A stretch of DNA of 64,000 nt from an uncultured Methanosarcinaceae archaeon (GCA_963733675.1 CAVTET010000004.1:1-64000), one strand, 5' to 3'. Positions 40,477 to 60,302 are shown, counted from the stretch's first letter. Program-made: numbers and translations. The notes: a model not told the origin generated them from the sequence alone.

Positions 40477-40580
40477 TTTCCCGCCACCTTTAGAAACCCA
40501 TATTCACCTTCTCTAGTTTTTTCCAAATATATTCGCTTTTATGAATTTTCTTATTTTTCTGTATTTCACCTTTTTCAGCT

Positions 40581-41372: not shown

Positions 41373-41373
41373 T

Positions 41374-42642
41374 TTAGATTCCTCTCTTCAAGTTCAGGAC
41401 GGTTTCCAGATCTTTGTCCCCTCTTCCGGAAAGATTTACAACCACAATATCCCCTAATTCTCCGTTTTCCGTCGCCTTTTTCAGGTAAGCAAGAGCGTGA
41501 GAAGATTCCAGAGCAGGAATGATTCCTTCAAGCCGGCTCAGTTCATGAAAAGCCTCAACTGCTTCATCATCAGTAGCGTAAAGGGCTGTAACCCGATGGG
41601 TTTCAGATAGGTAGGCTAGTTCAGGCCCAACCCCTGAATAGTCCAGTCCGGCAGAAACAGATTCTGATTCAAGGATCTGTCCATTTTTATCTTGTAGCAC
41701 CTTTGTTAGAGCTCCATGTAGGATTCCTTCTTCTCCAGCACAGAGGCAGGCCGAGTGAAAGGCTGCTTTTTCTGTACATTTCAAGCCTTTTCCTCCGGCT
41801 TCAACGGCAATGAGTTTAACCTCTTTATCGTCGACAAAGGGATGGAAAATTCCCATTGCGTTGCTTCCGCCACCAGCGCAAGCAATAATTGAATCAGGCA
41901 TACGTCCTTCCTTTTCCAGTATTTGTTCCTTCACCTCGCGTCCAATAACGCTTTGAAAATCCCTTACTATCATAGGATAGGGATAAGGCCCCACAACCGA
42001 ACCTATTAGGTAATGAGTATTGACTATATTTGTGACCCAGTCCCTGAATGCCTCATTGATCGCGTCCTTGAGAGTCTTTGAGCCTGTATATATGGCTTTT
42101 ACCTCAGTGCCCATGAGTTTCATTCGATATGCATTCATCTGTTGACGTTTGACATCTTTAGCACCCATGTATACAATAGTTTCAAACCCAAGGTTTGCCC
42201 CTACCATGGCAGTTGCAGTTCCATGCTGGCCTGCACCGGTTTCTGCGATCAGCCTGGTCTTACCCATATATTTTGCGAGCAAGGCCTGTCCAATGGCATT
42301 GTTTAACTTATGAGCCCCTCCGTGAACCAAATCTTCGCGCTTTAGATAGATTTTTGACCCGTATTTTTTGCTCAGGTTTCGGGCAAAATAAAGGGGTGTT
42401 TTCCTACCTGCAAAGTCTCGCAGATAATGATCAAGCTCTGCAATAAATTTGATGTCATTTTTGTACCGTTCGTATCCCTTTTCAAGTTCCTCTAGTGCCG
42501 GCATGAGGACTTCAGGTACGTACTGTCCCCCGTATTTGCCATATTTTCCTCTAACCTGGGTTGTATTGCCGGTTTTCGAACTTGCAAGTTCATTTGAGTA
42601 AGAACCCCTTGTATGCGATTCTGAAACGTTAGTTTCTGCCAA
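41374..42642 (-). CDS. trpB: Tryptophan synthase beta chain
   Basis: [32 protein letters not shown]. Confidence 0.97.
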
Positions 42643-42844
42643 TTCAACTACCTCTTGTCTATAAGTGTATTAAATATAGCTTGATTTATGATCTCTTGAC
42701 TTCTGGTATCAAAATTTCTGTTATCTTAATTTCTTGTAATGTGATTGTATGATATTTATGAAGCAGAATTCAATTTTAAAGTGGAGGCGAATTTTTCAAT
42801 CTTGATTCCACCAAGAGGCAGATTTCAGAAAATTAACAAAACAG

Positions 42845-43657
42845 TTATTCACGCCAGCAAAGACTCTGAACTAATTCTTCAGTTGTTTCAAAAACAGAGT
42901 CGCTTTCCATAATCGCAGACCCTATCAATACAGCATCTGCTCCAACCTGGATAACTCTCCTAATATCTTCTGCGTTATTCATCCCGCTCTCACTTATAAT
43001 GAGATGTCTGGTCCCATGGTTAACGTCGTACTCTCGGATGAGGGGGGCAAGCTCTTCTGTAGTAGCTAAATCGATTTTAAGTGTCTCAAGACTTCGGTTG
43101 TTAATCCCAATAATCCTTGTGATGGTTTTCAGTGCAAGCTCAAGCTCGGCTCTGTTATGAACTTCAACCAGCGGTTCAAATCCCTTTTGAAGAGTAAGTT
43201 CGACAAAGGTCAGTAGCTCTTTCCCAAGGATACCTGCAATTAGGAGCACCAGATCGCTCTCTACTTCCTCAAGCTGCCTTCTGTCAATAATAAAATCCTT
43301 CCTAAGGACAGGCAAGAATATATTTTCTCTCACTGCATTCAAATTTTCAAGTGAGCCCCGAAAAACTCCTGGCTCTGTTAAAACCGAAATTGCAACAGCT
43401 CCAGCCTGTTCCATCTCCCGTGCAAGCCTTACAGCTGTTGCAGGCAAAATATCTCTGAAAACTTTACCCGGAGATGCAGGTTTGATCTCCGCAATTACTG
43501 GTATTAACCCTTCAGCCTTTGCACTTTCAACCGCAGAGAGGAAATTCCTTTTCTCAAATTGTATTCCAATATATTCAGAGCATTTATGCGGTCCTAAAGC
43601 CTGAAGGCGTGTTTTTGTTGTGGTTAGGATGTGGAGGATAGTGGCGTGCATTAACAA
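42845..43657 (-). CDS. trpC: Indole-3-glycerol phosphate synthase
   Basis: IAEIKPASP, SVLTEP, LRKDFI, GINNR, SESG. Confidence 0.96.
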   Translation of the reverse strand: MLMHATILHILTTTKTRLQALGPHKCSEYIGIQFEKRNFLSAVESAKAEGLIPVIAEIKPASPGKVFRDILPATAVRLAREMEQAGAVAISVLTEPGVFRGSLENLNAVRENIFLPVLRKDFIIDRRQLEEVESDLVLLIAGILGKELLTFVELTLQKGFEPLVEVHNRAELELALKTITRIIGINNRSLETLKIDLATTEELAPLIREYDVNHGTRHLIISESGMNNAEDIRRVIQVGADAVLIGSAIMESDSVFETTEELVQSLCWRE

Positions 43658-43664
43658 TCACTGA

Positions 43665-43690
43665 TGTATATTTAAGTACAATGATGCATA
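43665..43690. promoter_or_regulatory. Putative TRP-box-like operator (TGTATA-N4-AGTACA-N4-TGCATA) upstream of trpC
   Basis: Three TGTACA-like hexamers at 10-bp period between a TATA-like element and the trpC start. Confidence 0.45.
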
Positions 43691-43779
43691 ATACAGCACT
43701 TCTTATAAATAGGTTTTGGATCAAACAGCATTTCCGAATAAAAATAAATAACATGTAGCCTTTAAGGATAATGATATTA

Positions 43780-43806
43780 ATGGTAATAGGATTTACAATG
43801 ATAAAT
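43780..43806 (+). pseudogene. Detached 5' end (MVIGFTMIN) of the Lrp/AsnC gene whose body lies at 55726-55938
   Basis: ATG GTA ATA GGA TTT ACA ATG ATA AAT joins the distal ORF in frame through the shared 12-bp core. Confidence 0.8.
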
Positions 43807-43930
43807 ATGTATATGGAGTCTGGTAGGTTACGCCAGCTGAATTAGCAGCAAGAGTATACGTCAATCCAAGCGATACACTATCACCGATTTTCTGTTGAAT
43901 TTCAGGAGTTAATTTAGTAGGTCTTGCCAT
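43793..43930 (-). pseudogene. Truncated HTH protein resembling terminase-small-subunit-like N-termini (MARPTKLTPEIQQKIG...AGVTYQT)
   Basis: 45-aa ORF with a GGTG RBS; runs into attL. Confidence 0.5.
43795..43806 (+). repeat. attL core ACAATGATAAAT
   Basis: Identical to 55723-55734. Confidence 0.8.
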
Positions 43931-44623
43931 TGATAACACCGTTTTTTACTATTTAAAATAAATATCAATTAATGTTGTATTTATATTTTCTTAGTTCCCT
44001 TTGACACAACGACGGGGTTTATGTGCATAAAATCAAAAATGAGCTATTCTAGAGCGTTTAGACCAAATTAAATGCCCACAATTTTGTTGACAGACGACGG
44101 TGGGTGACCACGAGATATATTTCATATACGTTTTATTACTCTTAAAGTATAGAACTTATGTTATACTTATTCGTATTTGGTCTTTAGATAGGAAATGCAC
44201 TTTTAGATATAGTTGGGTTAAAAAATAAAGCGTAGACTTTATGGGAGAACTGATTTGGGCTGAGTTTTGGATATATAGTTTAGCGACCGTGGTGCATATA
44301 ACAGAGATACTATAGTATAATCTTGATCCTGACAGAGCCCCTGAAAGGATTACGACTGTTTCAGTGTACTGTTTAGCTTTGGCAGTTTGTTCGGTTGCGG
44401 TGGTTTTTGTGATCTATGTTTATCTGGAATTAATTAAAAAATAGTAAATAGCGAATTTATTTGATATTTATTTGATGATTTTCGCTAATTTAAGGAATTT
44501 TATTTGAATTATTTGATTCATTTCAGTAGTTTTTGTCACTTTTATTTAATAATTGAATTGATCTTAGGATTTATTCGTCAATTTATGACTAACATCGGAG
44601 ACGTCAAAAACGTTTATATTCCG

Positions 44624-45400
44624 TTATAACTCAGCCTTCCACTCATTAGCCTGGAATTGCTTCATCATATTCGCATTCTCATCTGGCTTTACAGTACGGT
44701 AAAGATGATGGTCAGATGGAATCACTTCAACCATAATATCGATCATTTCTTGTGGATCGTTCTGATGAGAAAAAATATCTTTGAAGTAAGGGAATTTTAT
44801 TAAATTTTTATCAGGATCGTACCACTGAGATACACTTTCTGCTCCAGTATCATTAAAACCAGTTAGGAATGCGCCTGGATTAATAGTCGCGACTTTCACA
44901 CCATAGGGCTCTAGCTCTTCTTTCATTGCCCAAGCAATGGCTTCGATAGCATGCTTAGTAGCGCAATAAGTTCCTACAAACGGTACCTTAAAAATTCCAG
45001 CCACCGATGAAATCCAAATAACCTTACCATCGCCTTGTTTTATCATTTTACGCGCAAAGCCCTGCGACAGCTCTAGATGACTGAAAACATTTGTCTCAAA
45101 GGATTCACGTACCCTTTCCAGAGGTATATCGACCATTGCACCACTTTCCATAATTCCGGCATTATTAACTAGAATATCAATGTCATAGGTCAGCGCACGC
45201 TGCTGATCGATATAATCTCGAATATCGAGCTTAACTACTTCAAGTTCGATAGCTTGTTCTTTGGCTTCACATCTTAAATCCCAGACCTGGGACCAGATTT
45301 GTGCAGCAGCAATAACTTTATGACCTGCCTTTGCCAAACCAAATGCTATCCCTTTACCAAAACCATGTCCAGCACCAGTAATAAGAATTGTCTTGCTCAT
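44624..45400 (-). CDS. Short-chain dehydrogenase/reductase
   Basis: TGAGHGFG, NNAG, YCATK motifs. Confidence 0.92.
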   Translation of the reverse strand: MSKTILITGAGHGFGKGIAFGLAKAGHKVIAAAQIWSQVWDLRCEAKEQAIELEVVKLDIRDYIDQQRALTYDIDILVNNAGIMESGAMVDIPLERVRESFETNVFSHLELSQGFARKMIKQGDGKVIWISSVAGIFKVPFVGTYCATKHAIEAIAWAMKEELEPYGVKVATINPGAFLTGFNDTGAESVSQWYDPDKNLIKFPYFKDIFSHQNDPQEMIDIMVEVIPSDHHLYRTVKPDENANMMKQFQANEWKAEL

Positions 45401-45508
45401 AATTTCGTCCTTCTTTCTAATTCATTAAATTCATTCCTCCCCCTTTTAGTCTCACAATCTGTCTCGTAGGAGATAGCCTGTGTGTTCACATTCGATCCTA
45501 TTTCAATT

Positions 45509-47863
45509 TCACTGCCGGACCATGGCAATACGCATCTCAGCTTCCTTATCTTCTATCAGTTGGCCGCTTACATCCACAGTCACGCTACGGATCTTGCCTG
45601 TGAACTCAAAGGGAGGACGGTAGTCTGGTGTGACTGGTGATCTATGAGCTGACCCACAGGTTACTCCACCAGTTAGTCCTAATGCAAACGGAGTAGTCAC
45701 AGGTACATCAACTTGACCGACTAACTTTCCATCTATAAATAGCTTAGCAATTCCAGGTGAACCCTTACCATTAGCAAAATCTGGCTTACCTGTTACCTCG
45801 AACTCAAACCCGAGTTGATGTCTCCCTTCAGGAACATTCTCATTGGACTCTACATGATAGAAAGCCCTAGATACGTAGTTGTATACCCAGTGAAGCTTTC
45901 CGTATTTGACATAGAATGAATATCCGCCATCGATACCACCATGAGAGAGTAATATCCCTTCAGCTCCTCCTGCAGGGATCTCAACATCGGCTAAAATACT
46001 ATGCGAGCGGTTGAGAACGTTGACTGCTACAGTTGCGGGGATCTCCTGAGTTCCGGGATAATAGGTGTAGTGCGTTCGATTAATTGTAATACTTGGCCGT
46101 TCATCAGTAATACGCAAAACTCCGCGACCATCAATAGGTAGCACATTATATTTTCCGGCTTCTGCATACCATGTGGAGATCATCTCAATTAATTTCGATC
46201 GATTCTCAGCAGCCACGTTAAAATTCTCTGCCCAATCCTTCTCAATATGATAAAGCTCCCAGCCTTTTGCGTCTAGCTCAGTTAATGTATCTGCAGAAAT
46301 AGGTTCGCCGAATGGTTTTCCTGCTTCAGTGAAAGAAAGGCCAGGCCATGGACATACGGCACGCCAGCCATCATGATACAGTGAGCGGTGTCCCATCATC
46401 TCGAAGTACTGTGTATGGTGCTTGGTTGGCGCATTGACATCGGCAAATGTATGTGCAAAACTTACCCCTTCGATAGGTGATTGACTTACACCTTTGATAA
46501 TAGTAGGAGGTTCAATTCCCAGGCATTCCAGAACTGTAGGTACCATATCAATAGCGTGAGCATACTGAGTGCGAATCTCTCCTTTAGCCTCAATTCCTCT
46601 GGGCCAGTGGACTATAAATGGATCACTTATACCTCCGCGATAAGTCTCTCTTTTCCAACGGCGGAAGGGTGTATTTCCAGCAAATGTCCAGCCCCAGGCA
46701 TAATGGTTGTAAGTCTCTGGACTCCCTAGTTTATCTAGAGCTGCGAGATTCTCCTCGAGAGATTCGAGCACATTATTGAAAAATCTGGATTCGTTAATTG
46801 ATCCCGTGGGACCACCTTCAGCACTTGCTCCGTTATCGGAAATTACCATGATCAACGTGTTCTCAAACTCGCCAATATCTTTCAGTAATTGCAACAGCCG
46901 ACCAATATGGTAATCGGTGTGTTCTAAGAACCCTGCAAAGACCTCCATCATACGGGCATAGAGTTCCTTTTCTTCAGGTGAGCATTTGTCCCAGGTCTTG
47001 ACATCCGGATCATGCCGAGATAGCTCTGTTTCTTTTGGAACTATACTAAGTTCCTTCTGCCGAGATAATGTAATCTCCCGGTAAAAATCCCAGCCGTCAT
47101 CGAATTTGCCTTTGTATTTGTCTGCCCATTCCTTCGGAACATGGTGAGGAGCATGCATGGCTCCTGGACAGAAGTACATGAAAAAGGGCTTGCTAGGTGC
47201 GACTTGTTTGGAGTCAGCAATGAACTGGATTGCCCTGTTCACTATATCCTCATTTAATGTGTAACCCTCTTCTGGAGTTTTGGGAGGGTCTATGGAATGA
47301 TTATCATATATAAGCTCAGGATAATACTGGTTTGTCTCACCTCCTAAGAAACCGTAGAAACGCTCGAAACCCCGTCCCAAAGGCCATCTGTCATAAGCCC
47401 CCGCTGCCGATATCTGTTCTGCAGGGGTCAGATGCCATTTACCGATAGCATAGGTGCTGTAACCATGTTGCAGAAGCATCTCTGACAAAAAGCCATTCTC
47501 AAAAGGTATATAACCATTATAGCCTGGATAACCAGTCGAGCCTTCGGTGATGCAGGCCATGTTGTTAGAATGATGGTTTCTGCCGGTAAGCATGCACGAG
47601 CGGCTAGGTGAGCATAGTGCAGTAGTATGCATATTGGAATAGGCAAGCCCCCCAACAGCTAAACTATCAAGGTTGGGTGTATGGATAGGGCTACCATAGC
47701 ATCCAAGTTGTCCAAATCCTGTGTCGTCCAGGATGATGAACAGTACGTTAGGAGCGCCCTCTTTAGAGCGCAGTGGTTCTGGCCAAGCTGGCTCTGACTG
47801 ATCTTCTGTGCGGGCGATTACACCTGGAAAAGTAGTTCCTGGTTTGTATTCTTTCATTGACAC
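45509..47863 (-). CDS. Arylsulfatase (Cys-type, formylglycine-dependent)
   Basis: PNVLFIILDD, LCSPSRSCMLTGR (CxPxR), GKWHL, SDNG; GTG start at 47863 after GGAGG. Confidence 0.93.
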   Translation of the reverse strand: MSMKEYKPGTTFPGVIARTEDQSEPAWPEPLRSKEGAPNVLFIILDDTGFGQLGCYGSPIHTPNLDSLAVGGLAYSNMHTTALCSPSRSCMLTGRNHHSNNMACITEGSTGYPGYNGYIPFENGFLSEMLLQHGYSTYAIGKWHLTPAEQISAAGAYDRWPLGRGFERFYGFLGGETNQYYPELIYDNHSIDPPKTPEEGYTLNEDIVNRAIQFIADSKQVAPSKPFFMYFCPGAMHAPHHVPKEWADKYKGKFDDGWDFYREITLSRQKELSIVPKETELSRHDPDVKTWDKCSPEEKELYARMMEVFAGFLEHTDYHIGRLLQLLKDIGEFENTLIMVISDNGASAEGGPTGSINESRFFNNVLESLEENLAALDKLGSPETYNHYAWGWTFAGNTPFRRWKRETYRGGISDPFIVHWPRGIEAKGEIRTQYAHAIDMVPTVLECLGIEPPTIIKGVSQSPIEGVSFAHTFADVNAPTKHHTQYFEMMGHRSLYHDGWRAVCPWPGLSFTEAGKPFGEPISADTLTELDAKGWELYHIEKDWAENFNVAAENRSKLIEMISTWYAEAGKYNVLPIDGRGVLRITDERPSITINRTHYTYYPGTQEIPATVAVNVLNRSHSILADVEIPAGGAEGILLSHGGIDGGYSFYVKYGKLHWVYNYVSRAFYHVESNENVPEGRHQLGFEFEVTGKPDFANGKGSPGIAKLFIDGKLVGQVDVPVTTPFALGLTGGVTCGSAHRSPVTPDYRPPFEFTGKIRSVTVDVSGQLIEDKEAEMRIAMVRQ

Positions 47864-48176
47864 ATCTTTTCCTCCAATCGCTAATTGACATTTTGTAAAG
47901 CTCTGAAAGAGAAGGCTAAATAGGGGAAAAAACTTTATTATTTTGACCACTTTTTGTTAGAATTCGTAATTTGGCATGTCCACGAGTTTTTGAAAATTAT
48001 AACCATAAGGCTCGTCCTACATTTCTCTAAAAATGGGAAAAGCACTTGTTTTTCATATTTTATCAATGACTCAAGGATATGACTCACAATTTCTTGCCTG
48101 AAGATCAATTATTAAAAAAATAAAGTGGTTTCCAGAGAGTTTATTCCCTGGTAAAAATCTGCTTTCCCGACTGACT

Positions 48177-48665
48177 TTATTCTTCGGCAAAAGTTGCACG
48201 CAGTTGGCTTTCTTCTTCCTTTGACAGGTTGGTAGCAATTATTTCAAACTTGGACTTTTTCATAACTTCTACTACTCTATCCTCAACAGCATCGCTAGTC
48301 ATCAGGAAGAGAGCTGAAGTGCCTTCAGTCACTTTGTTGCGAACAGACTTTATGAAATCTTCATTAATACCCACGTGGGTCATGGAACCGGCAAATGCGC
48401 CTATTGCTGCACCAGCAACCAGGCCAACCAAAGGAATGAAGAAGAGGATACCAAATAGTAGACCCCAAAAAGCGCCGCTCAGTGCACCTTCACCGGTCAA
48501 ATTAGTCAAGTGCTTTGTTTTTGGTTTAGTTTTTCCTTCAGGCCAAGTGACTATAGCCGCATCATGTAGTTTTATCATTTGTTGCTTACTTAAGTCCTCA
48601 ATCACTTCAAGTTCATTTTCTGCACCATCAGCAGTGTCAAACTTCAAAACTGTTAAAGTTGCCAT
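48177..48665 (-). CDS. DUF1269-family membrane protein
   Basis: DAAIVTWP, GALSGAFWGLLFGILFFIP glycine zipper, TNLSKEEE. Confidence 0.85.
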   Translation of the reverse strand: MATLTVLKFDTADGAENELEVIEDLSKQQMIKLHDAAIVTWPEGKTKPKTKHLTNLTGEGALSGAFWGLLFGILFFIPLVGLVAGAAIGAFAGSMTHVGINEDFIKSVRNKVTEGTSALFLMTSDAVEDRVVEVMKKSKFEIIATNLSKEEESQLRATFAEE

Positions 48666-49133
48666 TACTCAATCTCCTTTCATGCGTTCATATTTATTTC
48701 GCAGTTTTTTGGGTAGCATGCCGATCAAAGCTACACGTCTTTTTGTAATCTTCAACCTGAGAACTGCTACGATTTAGAAGAGCCGAAACAAGTCGTTTTA
48801 TCAGCTGGTAATCTAAAAATTGACCATGCGCTAGGTTGTTATCGGCAGCGTTGCAATCCATTGGTTAGGTGATCCATTAATAAGTATTATGCTTTTTTCC
48901 AATTTAAGGTCCATTCTCTCGCTCAAAATTTTCCCATATAACCGCAACTCTAGGACTTTTACCAGTCCACGGGTTTCTAATACATTCTTTTTTCGCGAGT
49001 CAAATTTTAAATGAATTTATGGGACACGTTGTTGTTTTTCATAATATCGGTTTATAACGATGTAGCTTTATCTGATACGACATATTATCTAAAATGAGAT
49101 ATATATTTGCATTAATTTTATTATCTGAAATCA

Positions 49134-49487
49134 TTATTTGGTTATTAAGGCGTGTGTTTTTAAAGTGGGGTACTCTTCATAACAATTGTCACATAAAACA
49201 GTTACAGTAGGGCTTTTACCCCGTTGTCTTACAGTTTTTATCATCCCACATTTTTCTAACTCATCCAATGCTTTCGGAAAAGCCCAACCTGGGATAGGTA
49301 GAAATAAGTTTATGCCCTTTAGGGTGACTACTAAGTCTTTAGATTTCTTAACTCCTTTTAAATGCCAAATATACATAGCCATCCTGTATGTATGCCCCAC
49401 CGAATTGGAAGGTAACTTTATAATCCATTCTGAAGGCATTTGCGATATGAAAGAGCCTTTTATTTTATCTTTAGAATTCACTAGCAT
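49134..49487 (-). CDS. Small winged-helix DNA-binding protein, candidate replication initiator
   Basis: KALDELEKCGMIKTVRQRGKSPTVTV helix-wing; adjacent to the repeat array and the polymerase. Confidence 0.6.
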   Translation of the reverse strand: MLVNSKDKIKGSFISQMPSEWIIKLPSNSVGHTYRMAMYIWHLKGVKKSKDLVVTLKGINLFLPIPGWAFPKALDELEKCGMIKTVRQRGKSPTVTVLCDNCYEEYPTLKTHALITK

Positions 49488-49588
49488 ACTTTACCCCAGT
49501 TAATATTATCATTAAATATTAAGAAGAAATAAAGAAGATATATTAAAGAAATATAAGTAGTAAAACAGATATCATGAGACGTTAGAAT

Positions 49589-49693
49589 TTAGCTGCACAG
49601 CTAATTAATTTTAGCTGCAGAGCGAAATATATTTTGCTGGGCAGCTAATTAATATTACTCCACAGTTAAATTGGAATTTGGCTCTACAGCTAA
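49589..49693. repeat. Five imperfect 16-bp palindromes (consensus TTAGCTG-CA-CAGCTAA), iteron/origin-like
   Basis: Units start at 49589, 49611, 49633, 49654 and 49678; a very AT-rich tract lies at ~49500-49565. Confidence 0.75.
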
Positions 49694-49739
49694 ATAGAAA
49701 AGTTTGTCCAGAGGCTTTGAGCCTCATTTATGGTGGGTT

Positions 49740-51509
49740 TTACTCTTGTTTTACTTCTGTGAGGATTCGCATAATAAGCTCCCAAGTTTCGGCACCTTTC
49801 TCATCTATATACCTGTCAGGATAGCGGACAATATCGACATCTGTTTTCAATCTGTTACCTGCACCCAAAACGATCTCGGATGCATCACACACCAACTTTC
49901 TCGCTATCTCTATCTCTTTGTCTACCGCCTTTTCGTCGCACTCAATCGTCAACGCATCGTGAACTGGAGCAACAATTTTAATTTTATTTTTTGAGAGAAG
50001 GATGCATGCCACTCTAAGAATTTCAGCTCCAGTAGCTTGGATTGGGAAATTTTGAACGGTCAACATTTCCTTATTACTGGAGCCTGAAACAATCATTTTC
50101 CATTTGTAGCAGGTTTCGATCCTTTTCATTAAACAGGCTTGAGTCCACGTCATATCTACCCAACGCCAATAATTTTTGAAGACTCTTTTGTGATGACTAA
50201 GCAGTTCTTTTGCATAAGGTGTAGGCTTATCAATTTTAAGACCAAGTGATTCTGCACCCAAGCCATACTGAACGCCTAGTACACAGGATTTAAAAAGCTG
50301 CCTCATACTACCATGCGTTTCTTTTGTAGCGTCTGCTGGAACTGCACCTGCCAGTTTTGCAAAAGCCAGATATGGATCCCTACTTCTATATGCCTCAATC
50401 ATATTGGGGTCATTAGAGAGAACTGCCGCAATAAAGAACTCTTGCTGCGCATAATCAATATATGCAAGCACTTTTTCTTCAGTAGGTTTTATTAAACTTC
50501 TCAGACTAGCAGGAAGTCCAAACATAAACCTAACTCTTAATTCTCCTCTATTCTTTTTTTCTTCGTCATCCTTAGGGGCATTTCTACCTGTCTTAGTCCA
50601 GAATGGGGAGATTAAGGTTCGACTCCTGCCATCTGAACCAGCCATAATAGACTTAAAGTTTAACCCACCGATAAGAGCTCTTAATTCCTTTAAAGGCCTG
50701 ATTTCGATATGGATTTCTGCCATTTCCTTAAAAGTTTCCGTGTCTATTTTTGGCAAATCCGTATAAGTTCTTGGCCACACCCAATTATGGACTTGAAGTA
50801 ATCTCACAAAATTATTTATCTTAAAACTTGTACCTTCATAAATTCCAAACTTGTCAATATTTTTGATTAACTTTAATTTTATTTTTTCCCAGTTTTCTTG
50901 TAACTTGTTAAGTAGATCGGTATCTATTGGTATACCATTATACTCAATTTCTGCCACATATTTCATATACTCCCCCCGATATAGAGAAGTTGGTATATCA
51001 AAATCAGGGACTTTAATCATTTGTTTGAATAACTCTGCTGTTTCAAGCACGTCAGATTCACAATAACGCATAATGTATTCTTGATCTTCTTCAGAGTCAG
51101 GACCGCCAGCTAAAATACGATCTCTTGCAGCGTCTTTCTCCACTTTGCTAATGGTCTCTATGCCAAAAGCTTCACACGCATCCAGTAGATTTGCGCCTCT
51201 TCGTTCATAAGAATGATTAGAAAAGCACCTGTACTCCACGAAAGTATCAATGATATTGGATGGTAAAGGCCAGTTTAAGATCAGGTGACGTCCCCACTCC
51301 GCTGAACTCATATGAGCAACAAATAAGTCATTCTCACCTATCTAGTAGGGTGGCTGTGGATTACTTTCTTCAAAAAGCCACATTTTTTTAGTTTCTCCAG
51401 AATTTATCTCATGGGAAGCAACACAAACAGGTATTGGATGTTCGCTCGGTTTCGCGATAAACTCAAAGTCTATCACGTAAATGTTATCAAAAAATTGTAG
51501 GGGGAGCAT
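49740..51509 (-). CDS. Family A DNA polymerase (3'-5' exonuclease + polymerase, no 5' nuclease), 589 codons with an in-frame TAG at codon 56
   Basis: ExoI IDFEF, ExoIII YCESD, motif A DYAQQE, motif B RQLFKSCVLGVQYG, motif C VHD; ATG at 51509 overlaps the upstream TAA; TAG at 51342-51344. Confidence 0.88.
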
Positions 51510-52078
51510 TAAAGCTCGCCTCTGAGTCTCTTTAAAATAGGGTGGTTATAGTCATCTATAAACCGGTCCTTGAAAGCTATCTCGATAGCTTTGACTATGT
51601 TTTCCGGTTCGTCAGGCCATTCAGGTTCAGGAAGTTTACTTATCGCTAAGACGATATCGTAAGCTCCGATTGAGTAATTCCTTTGCAGCTTTACCCATTG
51701 AGTTTCCCCTGTGGTGTATGCGATCCGTCGGGTACGATTGAACTCATTGTCCTTACCTTCCGCGTCAGGTTGGGCTATTTCTGAGAGAAAAATTTCACCT
51801 GACCCGTAGGTAATTCCAACGTGAATTCTGACAAGCTTTAGCCTTTTTGTCTCCATCACCTTAGGATACAGATCTGGATTGAGGAGGTCTTTTCCTTCCC
51901 CTTCACTGTTGCCACCTAAATCCAAGAGAGAAGTGTCGAATTTCCATTCTGGCCCTGGCCTGATCCTGAAAAATTCCACACCAGTGTTGGGTTTTTTAAG
52001 AGGAATTGAAGTCACCACGCGCTTTATAAGGATGGGGGTAACTTCGGTAACTCGGAGAGCCTCAAAGTTAAAAGGCAT
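51509..52078 (-). CDS. Polymerase-associated protein, putative ssDNA-binding/accessory factor
   Basis: Coupled to the polymerase gene (TAATG overlap); GGAGG RBS; PEPEWP...IAFKDRFIDDYNHPILKRLRG C-terminus. Function is an inference. Confidence 0.6.
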   Translation of the reverse strand: MPFNFEALRVTEVTPILIKRVVTSIPLKKPNTGVEFFRIRPGPEWKFDTSLLDLGGNSEGEGKDLLNPDLYPKVMETKRLKLVRIHVGITYGSGEIFLSEIAQPDAEGKDNEFNRTRRIAYTTGETQWVKLQRNYSIGAYDIVLAISKLPEPEWPDEPENIVKAIEIAFKDRFIDDYNHPILKRLRGEL

Positions 52079-52227
52079 CTAAAAAACCTCCATACTTGAA
52101 GTAAAAGTTGCTAGACTATACATGCAACTGCTAGATGCAGAGCTAAAAAAGAAACTATATTTGATATGAAAACTCTATCATTCATAATGCATCACTCTTT
52201 GTTTATGGGTTGATCTGTTCTCGTGGG

Positions 52228-52569
52228 TCACTCGTGCGAAAGTAAGCATCTTTCAGTGGTGTTTTGCGAAATTTCCGACTGCTTGGCCGCTGTGGACATT
52301 CGCGAATCACTAACTGCAACGTTTTTAATTAAGATGGCTTGTACTTTATCATATACATATCCTGTTTTGAGTATCAAAGCAACCTCTACTCTCGTTTTAC
52401 TGTTTCCAGAGTTGCTTCTCCTCTTATCGATGGATGCTCTTATTGGCAGGAGACGTACCTTAGCCATTTTCTCGATTTTGATCATTGTTTTATGTACTTT
52501 GGAAAGATGCTGATCAAGTTTTACATCTATCGTTAAAGTTTTATTTTTATAATATCTATTATTCATCAT
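52228..52569 (-). CDS. Hypothetical protein (element-borne, uncertain)
   Basis: ORF track only; co-oriented with neighbours. Confidence 0.3.
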   Translation of the reverse strand: MMNNRYYKNKTLTIDVKLDQHLSKVHKTMIKIEKMAKVRLLPIRASIDKRRSNSGNSKTRVEVALILKTGYVYDKVQAILIKNVAVSDSRMSTAAKQSEISQNTTERCLLSHE

Positions 52570-52638
52570 GATGCCCTCGATATTTTGATAGCCGGCAGTA
52601 TCTTGATCCGTATGCCGGTTACAATTCTAAGTATATTT

Positions 52639-52881
52639 TCATTTTTCAATTTTACTGTTGTTGTTTTTATCTCTGGATTTACTGATTTCATCCAAAGCAT
52701 AGGCAAAGCTGTCATAAAAGCACCCTGCTTGCAACTTATGGAAGATACAAAAAAAATCAGTATTCAGAGCCAAGTTAAGTTCGATCAAATACCTTAGCTG
52801 GGATAGCTTCTTCTTATCAGGAGTAACTTTCCATTGGATTTGTGGAAGTTTGATACTTCCTACAATCTTGTTTTTAAGCAT
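52639..52881 (-). CDS. Small hypothetical protein (element-borne)
   Basis: 80-aa ORF with GGAG RBS. Confidence 0.5.
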   Translation of the reverse strand: MLKNKIVGSIKLPQIQWKVTPDKKKLSQLRYLIELNLALNTDFFCIFHKLQAGCFYDSFAYALDEISKSRDKNNNSKIEK

Positions 52882-52947
52882 TAATCTCCACTCCTGCTGT
52901 TTTTAATATATCCTTCGCAATAACCCTATTTAACGGATTATCACTTT

Positions 52948-53253
52948 TCAACATGAGCAATAAAACTTCGTTATTTTGCTCACTAACAAGTCTTGCCCAT
53001 TCCGAAAACGAAAAAAATTATCTTTTCTGGTTATAGAGTTCATTACATTCACCTTCTTCCAGATGGTTGTGTTAATCTCGGTTCTGCGGGCCCGGTAAGA
53101 TTCTACAGGAACTGGGGTTATGATAATTCTTTGTTCATTGTCCATTTCGATCTTTACGTTTTCAGGATTCTCTGACCTGATCCACTGTATCGGCAGACTA
53201 ATTAAAAAGCTGCCTCCTTGTCTAAATATTGATCTTTTACCGATATTGAGCAT
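52948..53253 (-). CDS. AbrB/SpoVT-like DNA-binding protein
   Basis: KRSIFRQGGSFLISLPIQWI...VKIEMDNEQRIIITP swapped-hairpin pattern; GAGG RBS. Confidence 0.7.
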   Translation of the reverse strand: MLNIGKRSIFRQGGSFLISLPIQWIRSENPENVKIEMDNEQRIIITPVPVESYRARRTEINTTIWKKVNVMNSITRKDNFFRFRNGQDLLVSKITKFYCSC

Positions 53254-53424
53254 TTATGTTACCTCAATTTGACTTCGATATGACTAATGTTATAATTTTA
53301 TATATAGTTTTATATATTGATAAATAGATTTATTAGAACAACATATTGTGAGATAATAATATACATCCAACATGTTGGTAAAATATCACTATTATTTAAT
53401 AGAAGTTACAATTTGTCTTATAAC

Positions 53425-54228
53425 ATGGAAGAAAAACCTATCAAGAAAACAATAAAAGACAAAATTTTAGAAAGCTTAGTATATTATCCGAAAACAAACA
53501 CTCAACTGTTGCAAGAGCTGGGTTATAGTAATAAACAACATGGTAACATTTCTAAACAATTAAATCAGCTAAAAACAGATGGGTTTATTGTTGATGGAAA
53601 AGAAAAATCTCCAAATATAGATGACTATGCTACATCATGGTCAATAGTTCCAACTCTAGAAAATTTTAGGTATATAGGAAAAGATCCAAATTTAGTACCA
53701 GTGTTGCAAAAAAAAGATGTTGTTCTCGAAATTATTGCGGAGAACATGCGTGTTTCAATTATTCAAGATGTTATTCTGGATATAGACGCTACTAGTTCTC
53801 TTATAAGTAAGAAAATAATTAGAGGAGATCAGGAAGAATTATATTCACTTCTTGAAAAGCCTAAAAGAAAATTTAAGGAAATGTTAAAATTATCTCCTGT
53901 ATTCTTCAAATTTCATCTACTTCATGAAGATTACAACACGGACTCATGGAGTGATTTTGAAAGGGATATTGAAGAATTAGGACATATAGCTAAATTTCAA
54001 CTTATCCCTCCTCGTAATATAGTACGGTATTATCTATTTCTGAATTCATATGATTTTAAATTTTGTGTTGGTATAGATATGTTATATGGAAAATTAAGTG
54101 ATGAGGCAAAGAACTACTGGATTGAAATAAAAAATTATTTGAAAGAAGAAGAAATAAATATTAAGCCCATCACAGAAGCCGTCAGAAAAGCCATCACAAA
54201 ACAAGAATATAATTCTGCATTGAAATAA
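53425..54228 (+). CDS. Winged-helix transcriptional regulator-like protein
   Basis: KILESL..PKTNTQLLQELGY...NISKQLNQLKTDGFI; divergent from the AbrB-like gene; start corrected to MEEKP. Confidence 0.65.
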   Translation: MEEKPIKKTIKDKILESLVYYPKTNTQLLQELGYSNKQHGNISKQLNQLKTDGFIVDGKEKSPNIDDYATSWSIVPTLENFRYIGKDPNLVPVLQKKDVVLEIIAENMRVSIIQDVILDIDATSSLISKKIIRGDQEELYSLLEKPKRKFKEMLKLSPVFFKFHLLHEDYNTDSWSDFERDIEELGHIAKFQLIPPRNIVRYYLFLNSYDFKFCVGIDMLYGKLSDEAKNYWIEIKNYLKEEEINIKPITEAVRKAITKQEYNSALK

Positions 54229-54337
54229 ATTTTCTCTAAAGATCTTTTACCTAAATTTCTAAAAATATTAAAAGAATTTGTATTACAATATTATTGTCTA
54301 ATTGAGGAATTGGTTTCGTTTTAGACAACCATTAAAA

Positions 54338-55640
54338 TTACTTTTCATTTTTAAGCATGGCCTCCTTCAATTTAGAAATTTCGTCAAGCTCCCTTTTTAA
54401 TTCGTTCTTCATTTCCCATATTTTTTCAAGGTCTGCATATTGCATATAGTCAGCTTTGATAGATTCGGTGGCCTTCATTTTTTCTATCTCTGCCTTGAGT
54501 TCCTGCAGCTCCGATCTTTCCACAACATGCCTGGCTGTTTCAGCTTGTAAAATCTGATTTTCCTGTTTGATCCGCAGGTACTCAGGACTTTCTGAGATAT
54601 CCATCTCTTTTTGAATTGTAAGATAAGGCATATATTTTCCAATATCTTTGCTAAAGAGTTTTGATCAGATCGAAAATAAGCGGCTTTAGTTCTATCAATT
54701 TTATGTCCCATTGTAAACTCAACAAAGAAAGAGTCACAACCAACATTTAACAGAGCAGAGTCATAGTATTTCCTTATATTGTGACTTCGCATGATATTCC
54801 ATTTCCCTTTAGGTGTTGATTTACTGGCTTTCTCATTAAGCATTCTGTATATCTTGAGGAACGAATTCCTTTCAAGCTTCCTTAGAGACTCATCTTTTTT
54901 ATCAAGCCATTCAGCAGGTATTTTTCGACCAATGAAAAGGTAATCGTTGTCAGAGTAAACATGTTGCTTCTGTAATTGTTTTTGTTTCCTTATATCGGTT
55001 GAGTCAGATTTCCTATTTCTAAAATCTAAATAATCAATTACTGCTTGACTAGTTTCTGGCGTCAGAAATGTGATAAAATCTACCTTAGTTTTACCTCTAC
55101 GTAGTTTTAAAGTTGTTATTCCAGTTGTGGAATCATATCTATCCTTGAAGTTTCCAACTTTTAAATTTATGATCTCATTTGAACCTAATCCACTGCTTAA
55201 ACCTACTAAAACTACAGCTATTTCTAGCGGATCAGCCACTTTTAATATTATTTTAATATCATTTTTTGAAGTATCTCAATGTTACTTTCTAATACTGTGG
55301 ACTCAAGATTCCTTTGTTTAGGAAATTGAATATTATAATATGTATAAAATGACTGAATAGCCATTATATAACCTCGAATAGTGTTTGGAGCAAGATTCTT
55401 GTTTTTTAAATGCTGTTTAAATCTAGGAATATCAACGAAGATCGATCTTTCATCCATTAGCATTCCTGCTTTAATCTCAGCTTTAGCTTCAGTTATAAGT
55501 TGATCTGGGATTTTGGACAGAAACTCACAGTAAGCATTTATAGAATGCGTATAATTTCTTCTGGTATTAGATGAAGCTTCAATAGCTAACATCCAATTGT
55601 CTACCTTGGTAGACAATACAAAGTTAATATCAACAGTCAT
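54338..55640 (-). pseudogene. Tyrosine integrase broken by two apparent single-base deletions (~55271, ~54641)
   Basis: Three consecutive ORFs join into one protein: SAM-like N-terminus, SSGL, RRGKT, HNIRKYY, MGH, AYFR, PYLTIQKE tail. Confidence 0.85.
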
Positions 55641-55722
55641 AAGTAATTACCTCTATCATTTCATCCATTTTAAAATATTCGTTTTCCAAAAAATTTAGGG
55701 TTGTGTTACCATATACGGTATA

Positions 55723-55734
55723 ACAATGATAAAT
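55723..55734 (+). repeat. attR core ACAATGATAAAT
   Basis: Identical to 43795-43806. Confidence 0.8.
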
Positions 55735-55938
55735 GTGCTGCCAAGCTATGAAAAGGCAGCATATAGGGAATTTAGGACTATAGAAGGAATTAAAGACGTT
55801 TACCATGTCTTTGGAGAATATGATTTTGTAGTAATTATTAATGTCAAAGACCTTAGCACACTTAATTCAGTAGTGGACAGGATAAGGGAAAGCGAAACAG
55901 TAACCGCTACCCAGACAATTGTTGGGGCAGATCTTTAA
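55726..55938 (+). CDS. Lrp/AsnC ligand-binding (RAM) domain protein, 5'-truncated by the element
   Basis: VYHVFGEYDFVV, IRESETVTATQT motifs; the first 6 codons are found at 43780. Confidence 0.85.
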   Translation: MINVLPSYEKAAYREFRTIEGIKDVYHVFGEYDFVVIINVKDLSTLNSVVDRIRESETVTATQTIVGADL

Positions 55939-56289
55939 ACTGGAAGTCTCAAAATAAGATTAGGCCGTTTGATGTAAATGAAAAACATATATTTTTTAAA
56001 AAAATTCTGGATTTTTATACTTTAAACTTTTATCGACATCAATCTCTTGCTTCCAAAATTCTCATAAATAATTCGGTTTGAATAATCACCACAAAAAACT
56101 ATATTGAAATTTATGCCGAAGAAGAGACATTGATAGAAAGAATATTTTATCGTTGCGAGAAAATACTACTAATAAAAGCATCTATAATCTAAATTCCTGC
56201 CTCAAATATTTATAAGGTAAATAATAAGAGAACATTAGTTTTATTCTAAGGAAATGTTAGATTAATTTTTCAACCTGAGGTAAAATTCT

Positions 56290-58155
56290 ATGGAAGTCCC
56301 TATTGCAGAAGAACTTGCCAAAAAACAAAAGTCTATAAGTGTCGCCGAATTTTTTGAAAAAAATAGGCACATCCTAGGTTTTGACTCTGCACCACGAAGC
56401 CTTATCACAACAGTAAAAGAAGCCGTTGACAACGCTTTGGATGCCTGTGAAGAAGCAGGAATCCTGCCTGACATCCTTATCCAGATCGAAAGGGTGGAAC
56501 AGGACTATGTAACCGTCATTATAGAAGATAATGGACCAGGAATCATAAAAGAGCAAATACCAAAAGTTTTTGCAAAATTACTGTATGGTTCGAGGTTTCA
56601 TTCCCTCAAACAGAGCAGGGGACAACAGGGAATCGGAATCTCTGCAGCCGTGCTCTATAGCCAGATGACCACAGGCAAGCATACGAAAATCCTCTCCAAG
56701 ACAGGACTTAATACCCTGGCCCATTATTATGAGCTCATGATCAATACCAGCACGAATGAGCCCGATATCCTGAAAGACGAAGTAAAGGATTGGTTTCGCG
56801 CCCACGGAACCCAGATAGAGCTGGAGATGAAGGCTGCTTACGTAAAAGGAAGACGGCAATCTATTTATGAGTACCTCAAAGCCACAGCAATTGTAAACCC
56901 TCATGCAAGGATTACCCTGGTCGAACCTGACGGCAACGAGGAAGTTTTTGAAAGGGCTACAGATAAAATGCCGGACCTTTCAGAAGAAATATTGCCCCAT
57001 CCAGAAGGTATCGAGCTAGGTACTCTTATGAAAATGCTGCATCACACAGAGCGCCAAAAACTTGCCTCTTTTCTTAGATACTCTTTTTGTAAAATCGGCC
57101 TACTCACTGCCGAAGAAATATGTAAGGCTGCAGGGCTTGACCCTGAAATAGACCCTCATTTTCTTAGCCATCATGAAGCAAGAAAACTAATTGAGTCATT
57201 TGAGAAAGTAAAGATCATGGCGCCTCCCACAGACTGTCTTTCCCCAATAGGCGAAGAGCTGATTTACAGGGGGCTTGAAAAAGAAACAAAAGTGGACTTT
57301 ATTGCTACAAGCACACGAAAACCGGCTGTATATTCAGGAAATCCCTTTGTAGTAGAAGTGGGGCTTGCTTACGGGGGAAATTTATCGAAAGAAGAAAAAA
57401 TTAGCATAATGCGTTTTGCTAACCGTGTTCCTTTGCTTTACCAGCAAGGAGGATGCGTGACCACACACGCAGTTGAAGATATTAAGTGGAAGCAGTACGG
57501 CTTAAACCAGCCCGGAGGAGGAATTCCTGTAGGTTCAGCCCTCCTTCTAATTCATGTAGCTTCCATCAATGTGCCTTTTACATCAGAATCAAAGGACGCT
57601 ATTGCTGACATTCCTGTGATAAAAGAAGAAGTGAACCTTGCAATCAAAGATGTTGCCAGAAAACTTAAACACTATTTGAGCAAGCAAGACAATCTCAAGA
57701 AACGCCGAGAAAAAGAAATAATTATCACAAAAGTGCTCCCAAAAATGGCATTGAAGGTTGCAAATATCCTGGGCAAAGAGGTTCCTGACATAAATCCTGT
57801 TGTTGCAATGATTATGGGGAATCTGCTTGTGTACAGAAAAGTGAAAAAGAATGAGGAAGGGACTGCACATATTGTAATCAAAATCAAAAACTTTGGGAGC
57901 TCAACCCATTCCTTCAGGATACATGAGATGCTGCCCTGGACAATCAGCAGGGCAAAGCCTGAGCCAAAAATGGTTACTATAGGCAACGATTATGACTATA
58001 TATGGGAAGTTTCGGCAGCAGTAGGGTCTTCAAAGGTGCTCAGCTACATAATAGAACATGCAACAGACAAAGAGCTAGGAAAACTCCCTGATCTCATTGT
58101 AGAAGGGATCGAAGAAGAGCTGGTTACAGGAGCAAAGGCCTTTAAGGAGATATAA
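56290..58155 (+). CDS. top6B: DNA topoisomerase VI subunit B
   Basis: [35 protein letters not shown] motifs. Confidence 0.97.
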
Positions 58156-58156
58156 A

Positions 58157-59266
58157 ATGGCCAGAGAAATAAATAGCAAAAAAACATCGGGAGATGTCAT
58201 AGCAAGAGATAGACTTCTTGAGCTTGCAGGAAAAATTTATGACCAATTTGAAAATGAGGTTATCCCAAGCGTCAGCCTCCCAAGCCGAACAAAGGCAAAT
58301 ATAGAATATTCCGACGAGAGTGAGGTATGGGTCTATGGGGATAGAGAAAGTGAAAGGAGTGCAAAAACAGTAAAAGGTGCATTTCAGCTCCTGAAGACGA
58401 CTTATGCGACAGATTTTCTCATAAAAGAGCACCTGACCCAGAATCGTGGTTCGACACTTCGAGAACTGTACTATATATCGGAGGGCTGGGACTCCGCCAA
58501 GTTTAAGGAACAAACTGAAAGCGACCGTCTAATCGAAGATCTGGAACTCCTAACCAGTCTTCAGAGAGAGTATTTCCACATGCGCCCTGAAGAAGATGGA
58601 GCTACGATGTTTGGACCTATTGAGATATCAGAAAAGACAAAGAGAGGAGAGCGGGATATCCACTGCCAGAAAGATGTAGGAGAAGGAGGATACCAGATTC
58701 CTTTTAACGTGGAAAATATAGAGTTTAAGGGCCATGAAGCCAATATGATTATTGCTATAGAGACAGGAGGAATGTATGCACGGCTGATGGAAAACGGTTT
58801 TGATGAGGCCTACAAAGCAATACTTGTTCATCTCAAAGGCCAACCTGCAAGGTCAACCCGCAGAATCATCAAGCGGATGAACGAGGAATTAGGCATACCC
58901 GTAGCTGTTTTTACTGACGGAGACCCCTGGTCCTATAGAATTTATGCCTCTGTAGCCTATGGCGCTATAAAAAGTGCGCATCTATCGGAATTTATGGCCA
59001 CTCCTGCAGCCAAATTCCTGGGTCTCCAACCCTCGGATATAGTTGAATACGAACTCTCTACCGACAAGCTCACAGAACAGGATATAGGCGCATTACGCAG
59101 TGAACTTTCAGATCCACGTTTTGAATCCGAATATTGGAAGGAGCAAATCCAGCTACAGCTTGATATAGGGAAAAAGGCTGAACAACAGGCCTTTGCCGGA
59201 AAAGGTCTGGATTTTGTAACCGATGTATACCTACCTAACCGGCTCAGAGAACTGAGTATAATATAA
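58157..59266 (+). CDS. top6A: DNA topoisomerase VI subunit A
   Basis: TLRELYY, AIETGG, TDGDPW, KAEQQA. Confidence 0.97.
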
Positions 59267-60302
59267 AAAATATAATTTGCAACGTTAGAAGACGCTTTAA
59301 AACCTACTCAAATAGGAAGAGCTTATTATTTGATATCACTTATGAGTAATAAAATAACGGGTCAGCTTATTTTTGTTATGTGGCTTTGTAACTGCTGAAA
59401 GCAGACCGTCGAAATACCTTCAAAGCGTAGCCATAAGCCGTATTAAGGTCTTATCAAGAAAATTTTTACAAAGCCAATGCAAAAATACATGGATGAGAAG
59501 TTCCAAGTCCTTAGGATGTCTAGAAATATACTTTTTGAAGTTAACACCATATGTCAGTATCTAAAATCCTGACAAACAATATATTGTGTAATATATCCGA
59601 TGTCTGGAAAAAGTATGATATTTGAAACGAAAGGCGGCATAGAGGCCGCATTCGGTAGCTCAGGTGACACGTCTTAGGTGGACATTTTGCAAGCTGCATC
59701 TGCGGATGCGTCGGCGAATCAGGTGTTCCTATAGCTAAGTATTAATGCAGAATAACGTGGATACACTAGATGATAAATTTACACAGACAGTTCCATAAAC
59801 CATGTAAATAATTAAAAGAAAACTCCCCTATGTGGCTTTCTTTTCCTCATTTTATACATGGTTGTTTACTGCAAGGGTCATCCTAGTAAACAGCCTTTTT
59901 GTAGATAGAATCTGTAACTGACTCATATTTAGCAGTTACTATATCTCTCTAATTTGTGCTATCACTTCAGCAGTGTACCAAAAGTTCGTAAAATATGGTT
60001 GAATCTGTATCCTTTTTCTTTCACTATAAAAAATAGGGTATAAATCTACATTTATACCAACAAAAATTATGTCATTATTGTTTTCATTGATGCATAGTTT
60101 TTGTGACAAAAACTAGGCATTTAGCAATTATATATTGAATAGAACCCATGCGACCGAACGAAGAATCTGAATTTTTATACCTGAAATACACAAGATCTTA
60201 ACTTGTAAAACAATAATTTAAAATAAAAATGTATGTTGCATTTGATTTTTGATTTCAAGTGCTTAAGCTTCAAAAATTAAAAGTAGGAATGGTATGAAAA
60301 AT

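Follow-up and report, generated by a model that had tools for sequence, protein, structure and literature searches.

The stretch analysed here, 64,000 nucleotides of an uncultured Methanosarcinaceae archaeon (GCA_963733675.1 CAVTET010000004.1:1-64000; hereafter the window), carries an 11.9-kb insertion in a Methanosarcina genome at ~43808-55722. We consider it fairly likely that window 43808-55722 is a mobile element inserted by a tyrosine integrase and that its conserved core is a replication module, this core being an accessory gene (acc), a CHEAP-type family A DNA polymerase (PolA), a repeat array with an AT-rich tract, and a gene for a small winged helix-turn-helix (wHTH) protein. This reading draws on the conservation of the gene trio, its recombinase neighbours, the repeats, the catalytic motifs of the polymerase, a hint of a single-strand-binding protein (SSB) fold in acc, and the precedent of the CcPol-MP pair. 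An earlier note on this DNA had proposed a minimal PolA-driven replicon; the conserved trio with its repeats partly supports that proposal, whereas the element is 11.9 kb long and includes cargo, rather than being a 3-kb unit.

A conserved gene trio beside recombinases

The three open reading frames (ORFs) are co-oriented, as the earlier note described, and lie on the minus strand; in the sequence TAATG the acc stop codon and the polymerase ATG share one base, which would couple their translation. Conservation of the trio and its repeats beside integrases had been named beforehand as a test of the replicon idea, and this conservation was found, with no recurrent primase or helicase. The locus set comprises 140 loci from species genomes, IMG/VR and metagenome stretches. 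PolA is the next gene after acc in 89 of the 91 loci with enough downstream DNA, and an ORF of the wHTH family comes next after PolA in 75 of 82. Species genomes contribute 59 acc loci, nine from Methanosarcinaceae or other Methanobacteriota and 50 from bacteria (Planctomycetota, Pseudomonadota, Thermodesulfobacteriota, Myxococcota, Elusimicrobiota, Bdellovibrionota and Verrucomicrobiota); 357 metagenome stretches contain acc, 80 of which were kept, and one of 2.9 million IMG/VR contigs has it. The acc family as a whole extends to 5,607 cluster representatives at E ≤0.001. The distribution within the order is sporadic: 6 of 201 genomes matched, four of them with full-length open polymerase homologues (46-51% identity), and three of these four carry acc and the wHTH gene too, in unchanged order.

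Recombinases are chief among the neighbours that recur beside the trio, with tyrosine integrases in 37 and 11 loci and a recombinase of the serine type in 10; the remaining clusters tested gave a methyltransferase, a sulfatase or no match. No helicase or primase is found among the ten recurrent neighbour clusters tested, with 82 neighbouring ORFs of at least 450 aa not annotated singly. In 9 of the 11 bacterial loci scanned, the integrase lies directly next to a tRNA gene, and a Bacteriovoracaceae element has a 29-nt repeat at its borders, the two copies being 9.2 kb apart. At this Bacteriovoracaceae locus (L062, 3576-4740), a second integrase ends at the upstream 29-nt tRNA-Leu repeat, which suggests two elements in tandem at one tRNA.

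The earlier note had supposed a bacterial-type polymerase in a methanogen, and the PolA phylogeny is in keeping with this. Seven named archaeal polymerases and 13 metagenome rows form one clade (20 rows, SH-aLRT 100) nested among bacterial rows in a quick maximum-likelihood tree with a midpoint root, for which the thorough search is unfinished. As judged from these sequences, the topology fits a single transfer of the module from bacteria to Methanosarcinaceae.

A family A polymerase, probably of the CHEAP type

Profile matches bear out the description of the polymerase as a family A enzyme with exonuclease motifs, motifs A, B and C, and no 5' nuclease (PF00476, E = 1.4e-25, 90.5 bits against a cut-off of 34.3; phrog_17, 9.5e-51); at a length of 589 aa, a 5' nuclease domain would not fit. 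Its closest solved relative is 8jrb_A (E = 2.2e-16), followed by Taq (1.3e-11) and Prex (5.7e-6). The exonuclease motifs lie at residues 14-16 (DFE) and 149-153 (YCESD), and motifs A, B and C are all present. Catalytic residues of both the exonuclease and the polymerase are kept in 62-67 of 67 full-length relatives, including D14 (64/67), E16 (62/67), D352 (65/67) and D518 (67/67), and R403, K407, Y415 and G416 are kept in 63-66 of them. Position 3 of motif B is a leucine (L411) in 66 of the 67.

CHEAP polymerases form cluster 15 of a published classification, where they are termed 'cellular ... auxiliary polymerases' of Proteobacteria and some Methanomicrobia, with Leu at motif B position 3 (B3), 'no known partners' and CcPol as their closest group (Czernecki et al. 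2023, PMC10201439). The occurrence of CHEAP-type PolA in Methanomicrobia had thus already been noted there. The polymerase studied here displays the traits of this subfamily, namely Leu at B3, a DxE exonuclease motif and the lack of a 5' nuclease, and it probably belongs to CHEAP, judged by these sequence traits rather than by clustering with the reference enzyme of I. dechloratans. The Aquificae-like 'Hot Spring 1' PolA subfamily, also reported in Methanomicrobia, was considered and rejected, because the B3 residue is a Leu, not a Phe, and Prex is a poorer match than Taq.

In some Planctomycetota polymerases (L043, L064, L073 and L081), an insertion of ~140-160 aa separates the exonuclease domain from the polymerase domain. 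Where acc-PolA or PolA-wHTH fusions seemed to occur in high-GC bacterial loci, they were set aside as ORF-calling artefacts or as a ~150-aa insertion in PolA.

Repeats, AT-rich tract and winged-helix protein

The palindromic repeat array and AT-rich tract described earlier are both real features of the 252-nt spacer between the polymerase and wHTH genes. The array consists of four copies of the palindrome TTAGCTGnnCAGCTAA (with at most two mismatches) and one degenerate copy, as 16-mers at 22-nt spacing. Matches to TTAGCTGnnCAGCTAA number 11 in the whole window against 3.4 expected, and none of 100 shuffles reached 11. The adjoining tract is 77.8% AT, compared with 62.9% for the window, and is a candidate unwinding element, a candidate promoter of the wHTH gene, or both, as far as composition and position indicate.

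The same arrangement recurs in the relatives. In seven archaeal genome loci, Tandem Repeats Finder detects tandem repeats with a 21-23-nt period that start at or just after the polymerase stop codon. Each archaeal sister locus that was read also has an AT-rich tract, placed after the repeats and before the wHTH gene; sister copies in the window's own genome are alike. Repeats of the same kind occur at the corresponding place in bacterial loci L053, L064, L076 and L082, and the repeat sequences vary between lineages. This arrangement is that of an iteron-type origin, and an operator-promoter region would fit it too.

Iteron-type plasmid origins pair with winged-helix Rep proteins such as RepL and the phage O/DnaD-like initiators. 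The likeness here lies in the ~22-nt tandem repeats, the AT-rich tract and the adjoining winged-helix gene, together with weak family matches; the difference is a single winged helix of ~120 aa without a known helicase-loading partner. The identification of the small protein as a wHTH protein holds: winged helices of the GntR/MarR/FadR type are the PDB matches of its family profile (best E = 2.4e-4). Some of 30 family members match PHROGs of phage DnaD-like loaders or replication initiators (5, 3, 3, 3 and 2 members, with 5 for DnaD-like loaders and 2-3 for each of three initiator families), and one member reaches 19.8 bits for RepL, where the cut-off is 20.3. The 117-aa protein is a candidate iteron-binding initiator or regulator.

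Contigs from three metagenome runs match the wHTH gene and repeats alone and diverge on both sides (window 49153 and 49703), indicating that a wHTH-iteron unit exists apart from the window's polymerase copy. Copies of the wHTH gene on its own are likewise present in the same genome, at C4:382498 and C12:322101.

The accessory protein

The earlier note called the 189-aa accessory protein SSB-like, and predicted structure lends this a limited backing: gp32- and OB-like matches were found, and the matches are weak. The AF2 model of acc (pLDDT 84.7) has T4 gp32 (Z 4.4) and RB69 SSB (Z 4.3) as its best structural matches, over 133-134 residues, with other OB folds next. RB69 SSB also comes first in a Foldseek search against the PDB (E = 0.18). 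In BFVD the matches are phage proteins, with probability up to 0.99, and 4 of the top 50 are named SSB (probability 0.82-0.91, E 0.007-0.04). These comparisons weakly but consistently suggest that acc is an OB-fold, gp32-like single-strand-binding partner of the polymerase. Its C-terminal tail, HPxLKRLRGE, is invariant in the alignment and ends the protein. Together with the one-base overlap of the two genes, this tail lends indirect support to a contact between acc and the polymerase.

Sequence-level searches added little. Among 34 acc members no real Pfam family was found, one weak match to the unrelated VipE being taken as chance; the acc profile reached a best E of 0.78 against PDB sequences; and an ESM Atlas search with acc returned nothing usable. 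A predicted complex of acc and PolA, for the intact pair of locus L025, scored 0.29 against a mark of 0.34 and counts neither way.

Comparison with known polymerase-bearing elements

The closest parallels are the CcPol-MP-Cch2 systems of SCC-type elements and the related PolA-SSB pairs. De novo priming was demonstrated for CcPol in partnership with the small protein MP, and the origin lies downstream of their operon (Bebel et al. 2020, PMC7581432). The MP protein itself was shown to be an SSB with an OB fold, and PolA-SSB pairs occur on many Bacillota mobile elements, all with a helicase; the same account allows that more diverse PolA-SSB forms might have escaped detection (Rice 2023, PMC10061031). 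As in these systems, the trio places a family A polymerase beside the gene of a small putative SSB partner, in an integrative element with a site-specific recombinase, and it has origin-like repeats just 3' of the operon, as described for CcPol-MP (PMC7581432).

Several features set the trio apart. The SSB-like gene is upstream of the polymerase here and downstream in CcPol-MP, and the partner is larger (189 aa) and gp32-like, so that it is set beside MP by context and predicted fold, not by sequence. A small wHTH protein replaces the origin-binding helicase of CcPol-MP, and no helicase of the COG3378/DUF927 type is found here among the ORFs of the window element or the ten recurrent neighbour clusters tested, whereas all 17 published pairs have one (PMC10061031). 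The recombinase is mostly a tyrosine integrase, unlike that of SCC elements, and the hosts are Gram-negative phyla and Methanosarcinaceae rather than Bacillota. Relative to the PolA-SSB systems, a complete exonuclease domain is retained here; seven published PolA-SSB models keep the full exonuclease, and both CcPols with demonstrated priming are N-terminally truncated (PMC10061031).

With CHEAP enzymes the polymerase shares a length of ~580 aa, the lack of a 5' nuclease, intact exonuclease and polymerase motifs, and a setting in which Pol I is not replaced; an element context is absent from the subfamily description as available (PMC10201439). The I. dechloratans CHEAP enzyme is reported to be an efficient primer-extending polymerase, with de novo priming not mentioned in the available account (PMC10201439), and a 2026 survey places a bacterial PolA3 group in prophage regions (PMC12926913).

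The earlier note had drawn an analogy with pipolins. This is apt insofar as pipolins are integrative elements with their own, perhaps self-priming, DNA polymerase (piPolB), but that polymerase is of family B rather than A, and the available account describes neither an SSB partner nor a wHTH/iteron set (PMC7385651), so that CcPol-MP and the PolA-SSB pairs of SCC-type elements fit better. Literature searches returned no description of an acc-PolA-repeats-wHTH-integrase element in archaea or Gram-negative bacteria, although the supplements of PMC10201439 and PMC12926913 may list such proteins. A PolA-SSB system of a kind that lacks a helicase and uses a winged-helix origin binder is probably the best-supported description of the trio.

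Borders and target site of the element

The claim that the whole element lies inside the window is confirmed by 12-nt direct repeats at its ends and by an empty site. The core ACAATGATAAAT occurs twice, flanking the element, and once at the empty site of a sister genome (G210, ~92% identical), whose alignment covers window 36002-43809 and 55723-59631 with a 15-nt overlap. In metagenome run X4, one contig passes straight from 43794 to 55723; it leaves out 11,928 bases, and 12 of its letters fit either side. As it has 13 further differences, it probably represents a related strain without the element rather than excision. Integrase domains, flanking repeats and an empty site, the marks of a tyrosine-recombinase integrative element, are all present, the integrase itself being frameshifted.

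At attR, the core and the start codon of a host gene overlap; this gene encodes a small Lrp/AsnC ligand-binding-domain protein and is also present at the empty site (Table 1). A related Methanolobus element adjoins a homologue of this gene, beside topoisomerase VI B; a search for direct repeats of at least 11 nt at its borders found none. In a complete Methanosarcina genome (G175, locus L098), the Lrp-domain gene's 5' end recurs in two additional copies of 48 nt (6199-6246 and 10049-10096), 3.2-3.9 kb apart and upstream of the gene itself (13291-13502), with duplicated 203-aa ORFs between them; these copies suggest that further insertions or tandem units have used the same site of attachment. 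On the other side of the element, what looks like a complete operon for tryptophan (by translation, trpG, E, F, D, A, B and C) occupies window 36064-43657, divergent to the Lrp-domain gene, and the insertion parts this operon from the target gene.

Table 1. Features of the integrated element and its attachment site in the window
Feature	Position	Strand	Evidence or remark
attL core, 12-nt direct repeat ACAATGATAAAT	43795..43806		Same 12-mer at both ends; empty-site junction
Terminase-small-subunit-like gene remnant, 38 aa	43817..43930	-	tblastn, 76-84% identity to residues 1-38/40 of sister 138-/151-aa genes
Short-chain dehydrogenase, cargo	44624..45400	-	PF00106, 3.7e-41
Sulfatase, cargo	45509..47950	-	PF00884, 5.6e-68
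DUF1269 membrane protein	48177..48665	-	PF06897, 7e-37
Winged-helix (wHTH) gene, 117 aa	49134..49487	-	Family profile; position after PolA
AT-rich tract, 99 nt	49488..49586		Composition
Iteron-like array	49587..49700		Palindrome copies at 22-nt spacing
Family A DNA polymerase frame, 589 aa, TAG-interrupted	49740..51509	-	PF00476, phrog_17
Accessory gene (acc), 189 aa	51509..52078	-	PolA-adjacent; predicted OB/gp32-like fold
Iteron-like half match 5' of acc	52131..52146		3-mismatch match; kept in L025 but not in copy C1
Three small ORFs (113, 80 and 101 aa)	52228..53253	-	Last one AbrB/MazE-like, PF04014 0.0036, below cut-off
Winged-helix + helical protein, 303 aa, divergent	53317..54228	+	AF2 pLDDT 62.8; wHTH at residues 46-110, then helices
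Tyrosine integrase pseudogene, three pieces	54338..55640	-	PF00589 and SAM-like domains; tblastn with intact 429-/443-aa integrases hits frames 3, 2 and 1
attR core ACAATGATAAAT	55723..55734		Overlaps target-gene start codon
Target host gene, 70-aa Lrp/AsnC ligand-binding-domain protein	55726..55938	+	PF01037, 1.6e-11; present at empty site

As the earlier note had it, the element lacks a primase, a helicase and a HUH Rep: these families have zero matches among its ORFs of at least 70 aa. An Rfam scan of 43000-57000 also gave zero matches. Outside the trio, a sulfatase lies near the trio in three related loci too, and the DUF1269 gene is multicopy, with ~8 copies in the genome at 70-89% identity, one of which again adjoins a wHTH copy. 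Partial homologues of the three small ORFs are present in sister copies. The 303-aa protein is confined to the Methanosarcina element lineage, and Foldseek matches it to MarR/PadR regulators over the wHTH only; on its model, it is probably a regulator. The iteron-like half match upstream of acc is a possible, weak candidate for an operator.

Decay of the window copy

The earlier note inferred a replicon operating in a methanogen, which cannot hold for the window copy on account of two lesions that the note missed. Codon 56 of the polymerase (51342-51344) is a TAG in frame, where three sister copies have TCA (Ser); read as a stop, it splits the polymerase into a 55-aa piece with the DFE motif and a 523-aa piece. 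The integrase is spread over three frames by two frameshifts and is thus a pseudogene. Together, the TAG and the frameshifted integrase make the window copy a dead, decayed relic.

Reading the TAG as pyrrolysine (TAG=O) was considered and dropped, as the Pyl machinery was not found. In the 92%-complete assembly of this genome, no pylS scores above the cut-off (best 30.2 against 178 bits), tRNA-CUA is absent among 48 tRNAs, and no MtmB was found, whereas the control genome, M. acetivorans, scores for both the pylS and MtmB families; at 92% completeness this absence is unproven, and the TAG is most simply a stop. The element is multicopy, the genome having ~8 polymerase copies or fragments in all. 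The sole stop-free copy has a frameshifted, fused acc, so that an intact trio is missing from every copy in this assembly.

A possible mode of replication

In an intact relative, the replication module might work as follows. The element would excise to form a circle, whereupon the wHTH protein would bind the repeats and the AT-rich tract would open. The accessory protein may coat the exposed single strand and recruit the polymerase through its invariant C-terminal tail. Synthesis by acc and PolA could then start de novo, as with CcPol-MP, or from a transcript leaving the polymerase operon, and the two proteins could copy the small circle by strand displacement or pass it to host replication proteins.

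Several observations weigh against this proposal. No plasmid relative was found in PLSDB at E ≤1e-20; the two ends overlap in 0 of 22 whole contigs and in 0 of 80 metagenome loci, some of these loci not being whole contigs; and no circular joint appears in the contigs of the metagenome runs, where rare joints would not show. Among phages there was one partial match only, which we also count against autonomy. The plasmid, phage and circularity searches are therefore evidence against autonomous replication. On the protein side, motif C is HDA, where HDE would be usual, in 67 of 67 relatives (residue 519, window ~49953-49955), and the acc and wHTH proteins of the window themselves have no family match. 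The SSB matches of acc are weak, with Z 4.4 below the caution line of ~8 and Foldseek E values of at least 0.0017. Because annotation was limited to recurrent neighbour clusters, occasional helicases could have escaped. Finally, the wHTH protein and the repeats could be a repressor-operator pair only, and the AT-rich tract a promoter only.

The alternative that survives best keeps the replicon and gives up self-priming: synthesis would start from the acc-PolA operon transcript as an R-loop, or from a host-primase primer, with acc acting as an SSB or processivity partner. ColE1- and pAMbeta1-type plasmids start synthesis from a transcript. In all archaeal loci read, the repeats and AT-rich tract follow directly 3' of the acc-PolA operon and share its orientation, and the full proofreading exonuclease is kept here, whereas the CcPols with shown priming are truncated (PMC10061031). 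The efficient primer extension by the I. dechloratans enzyme points the same way (PMC10201439). However, the archaeal host has no Pol I-dependent plasmid machinery, though a primase is present, and the strict coupling of acc and PolA, with the invariant acc tail, suggests a dedicated two-protein enzyme like CcPol-MP. We regard this alternative as tenable but tentative.

The opposite elaboration makes the module a self-priming, strand-displacing replicase of PolA and a gp32-like protein, aimed at iterons by the wHTH protein, which would operate free of helicase and primase in Bacteria and Archaea and, in Methanosarcina, would drive a small-terminase satellite of head-tailed viruses. Taken as a whole, this elaboration strikes us as rather doubtful.

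The satellite idea can also be taken on its own. In satellites, the integrase and regulators are followed by an iteron-bearing replication module and then by the small terminase, and the gene layout here agrees with this order. In a phage-inducible chromosomal island (PICI)-like satellite, replication would occur only on induction by a helper, a head-tailed archaeal virus, a terminase-small-subunit (TerS)-like gene would redirect packaging into helper capsids, and the trio would still be the replication module. In Methanosarcina-lineage elements, a gene of 138-151 aa right after the wHTH gene matches phrog_4102 (terminase small subunit; 2e-20 and 8.8e-23), and a TerS-like remnant remains at the attL end of the window element. 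As in PICIs, an integrase, regulators, an iteron replication module and a small-terminase-like gene are found without capsid genes; no capsid, portal or large-terminase genes were seen in the elements read. The replication genes of phage-inducible islands are primase-helicases, whereas no primase-helicase is found here, and there is no known helper: no helper virus was identified, and acc is found in only 1 of the 2.9 million IMG/VR contigs. The TerS-like gene is seen only in the archaeal lineage, being non-recurrent in the bacterial loci, and it has 17 near-full copies and many fragments in the window's own genome, mostly distant from PolA and in varied contexts. It may therefore belong to another element type or serve another role, and we judge the satellite explanation unlikely. 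Examples of these copies lie at C13:5697-6107 and C7:47011-47421; two TerS-like copies are near a UvrD-type helicase (one full at 522 aa, the other a 225-aa C-terminal piece) and an unannotated 440-aa protein.

Should the module not be a replicon at all, the polymerase would be auxiliary cargo of the repair or translesion type, the wHTH protein a regulator, the repeats its operators and the AT-rich tract a promoter. The naming of CHEAP enzymes as 'cellular ... auxiliary polymerases' with 'no known partners' (PMC10201439) favours this account, as do the lack of any episome seen and the weak iteron-like site 5' of acc. It nevertheless leaves unexplained why the order and tight spacing of the trio are kept beside recombinases across phyla and two domains, and why copies decay as whole elements; multi-copy tandem repeats of 21-23 nt by an AT-rich tract are, moreover, typical of origins and not of simple operators. 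We consider a non-replicon improbable. Least probable by far is an anti-virus defence system with a PolA-like enzyme, as the match of PolA to the PADLOC model RTasPolA (DRT; 3e-27) scores no better than the generic Pfam PolA (93.7 vs 90.5 bits), the partner proteins have no PADLOC match, and the genes accompany integrases and att sites as the element core rather than as cargo.

Implications

In Methanosarcinaceae, the start of the Lrp-domain gene emerges as a hot spot for integration. Provided that the trio does function as a replicon, no simpler replication module with its own polymerase would be known to cross the divide between bacteria and archaea. The PolA-SSB primase idea would then reach past the Bacillota and take in a protein family that is very large and unannotated, and CHEAP polymerases would gain a partner and a role. 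For Methanosarcina genetics, the module might offer a compact vector backbone and a new pair of proofreading polymerase and SSB.

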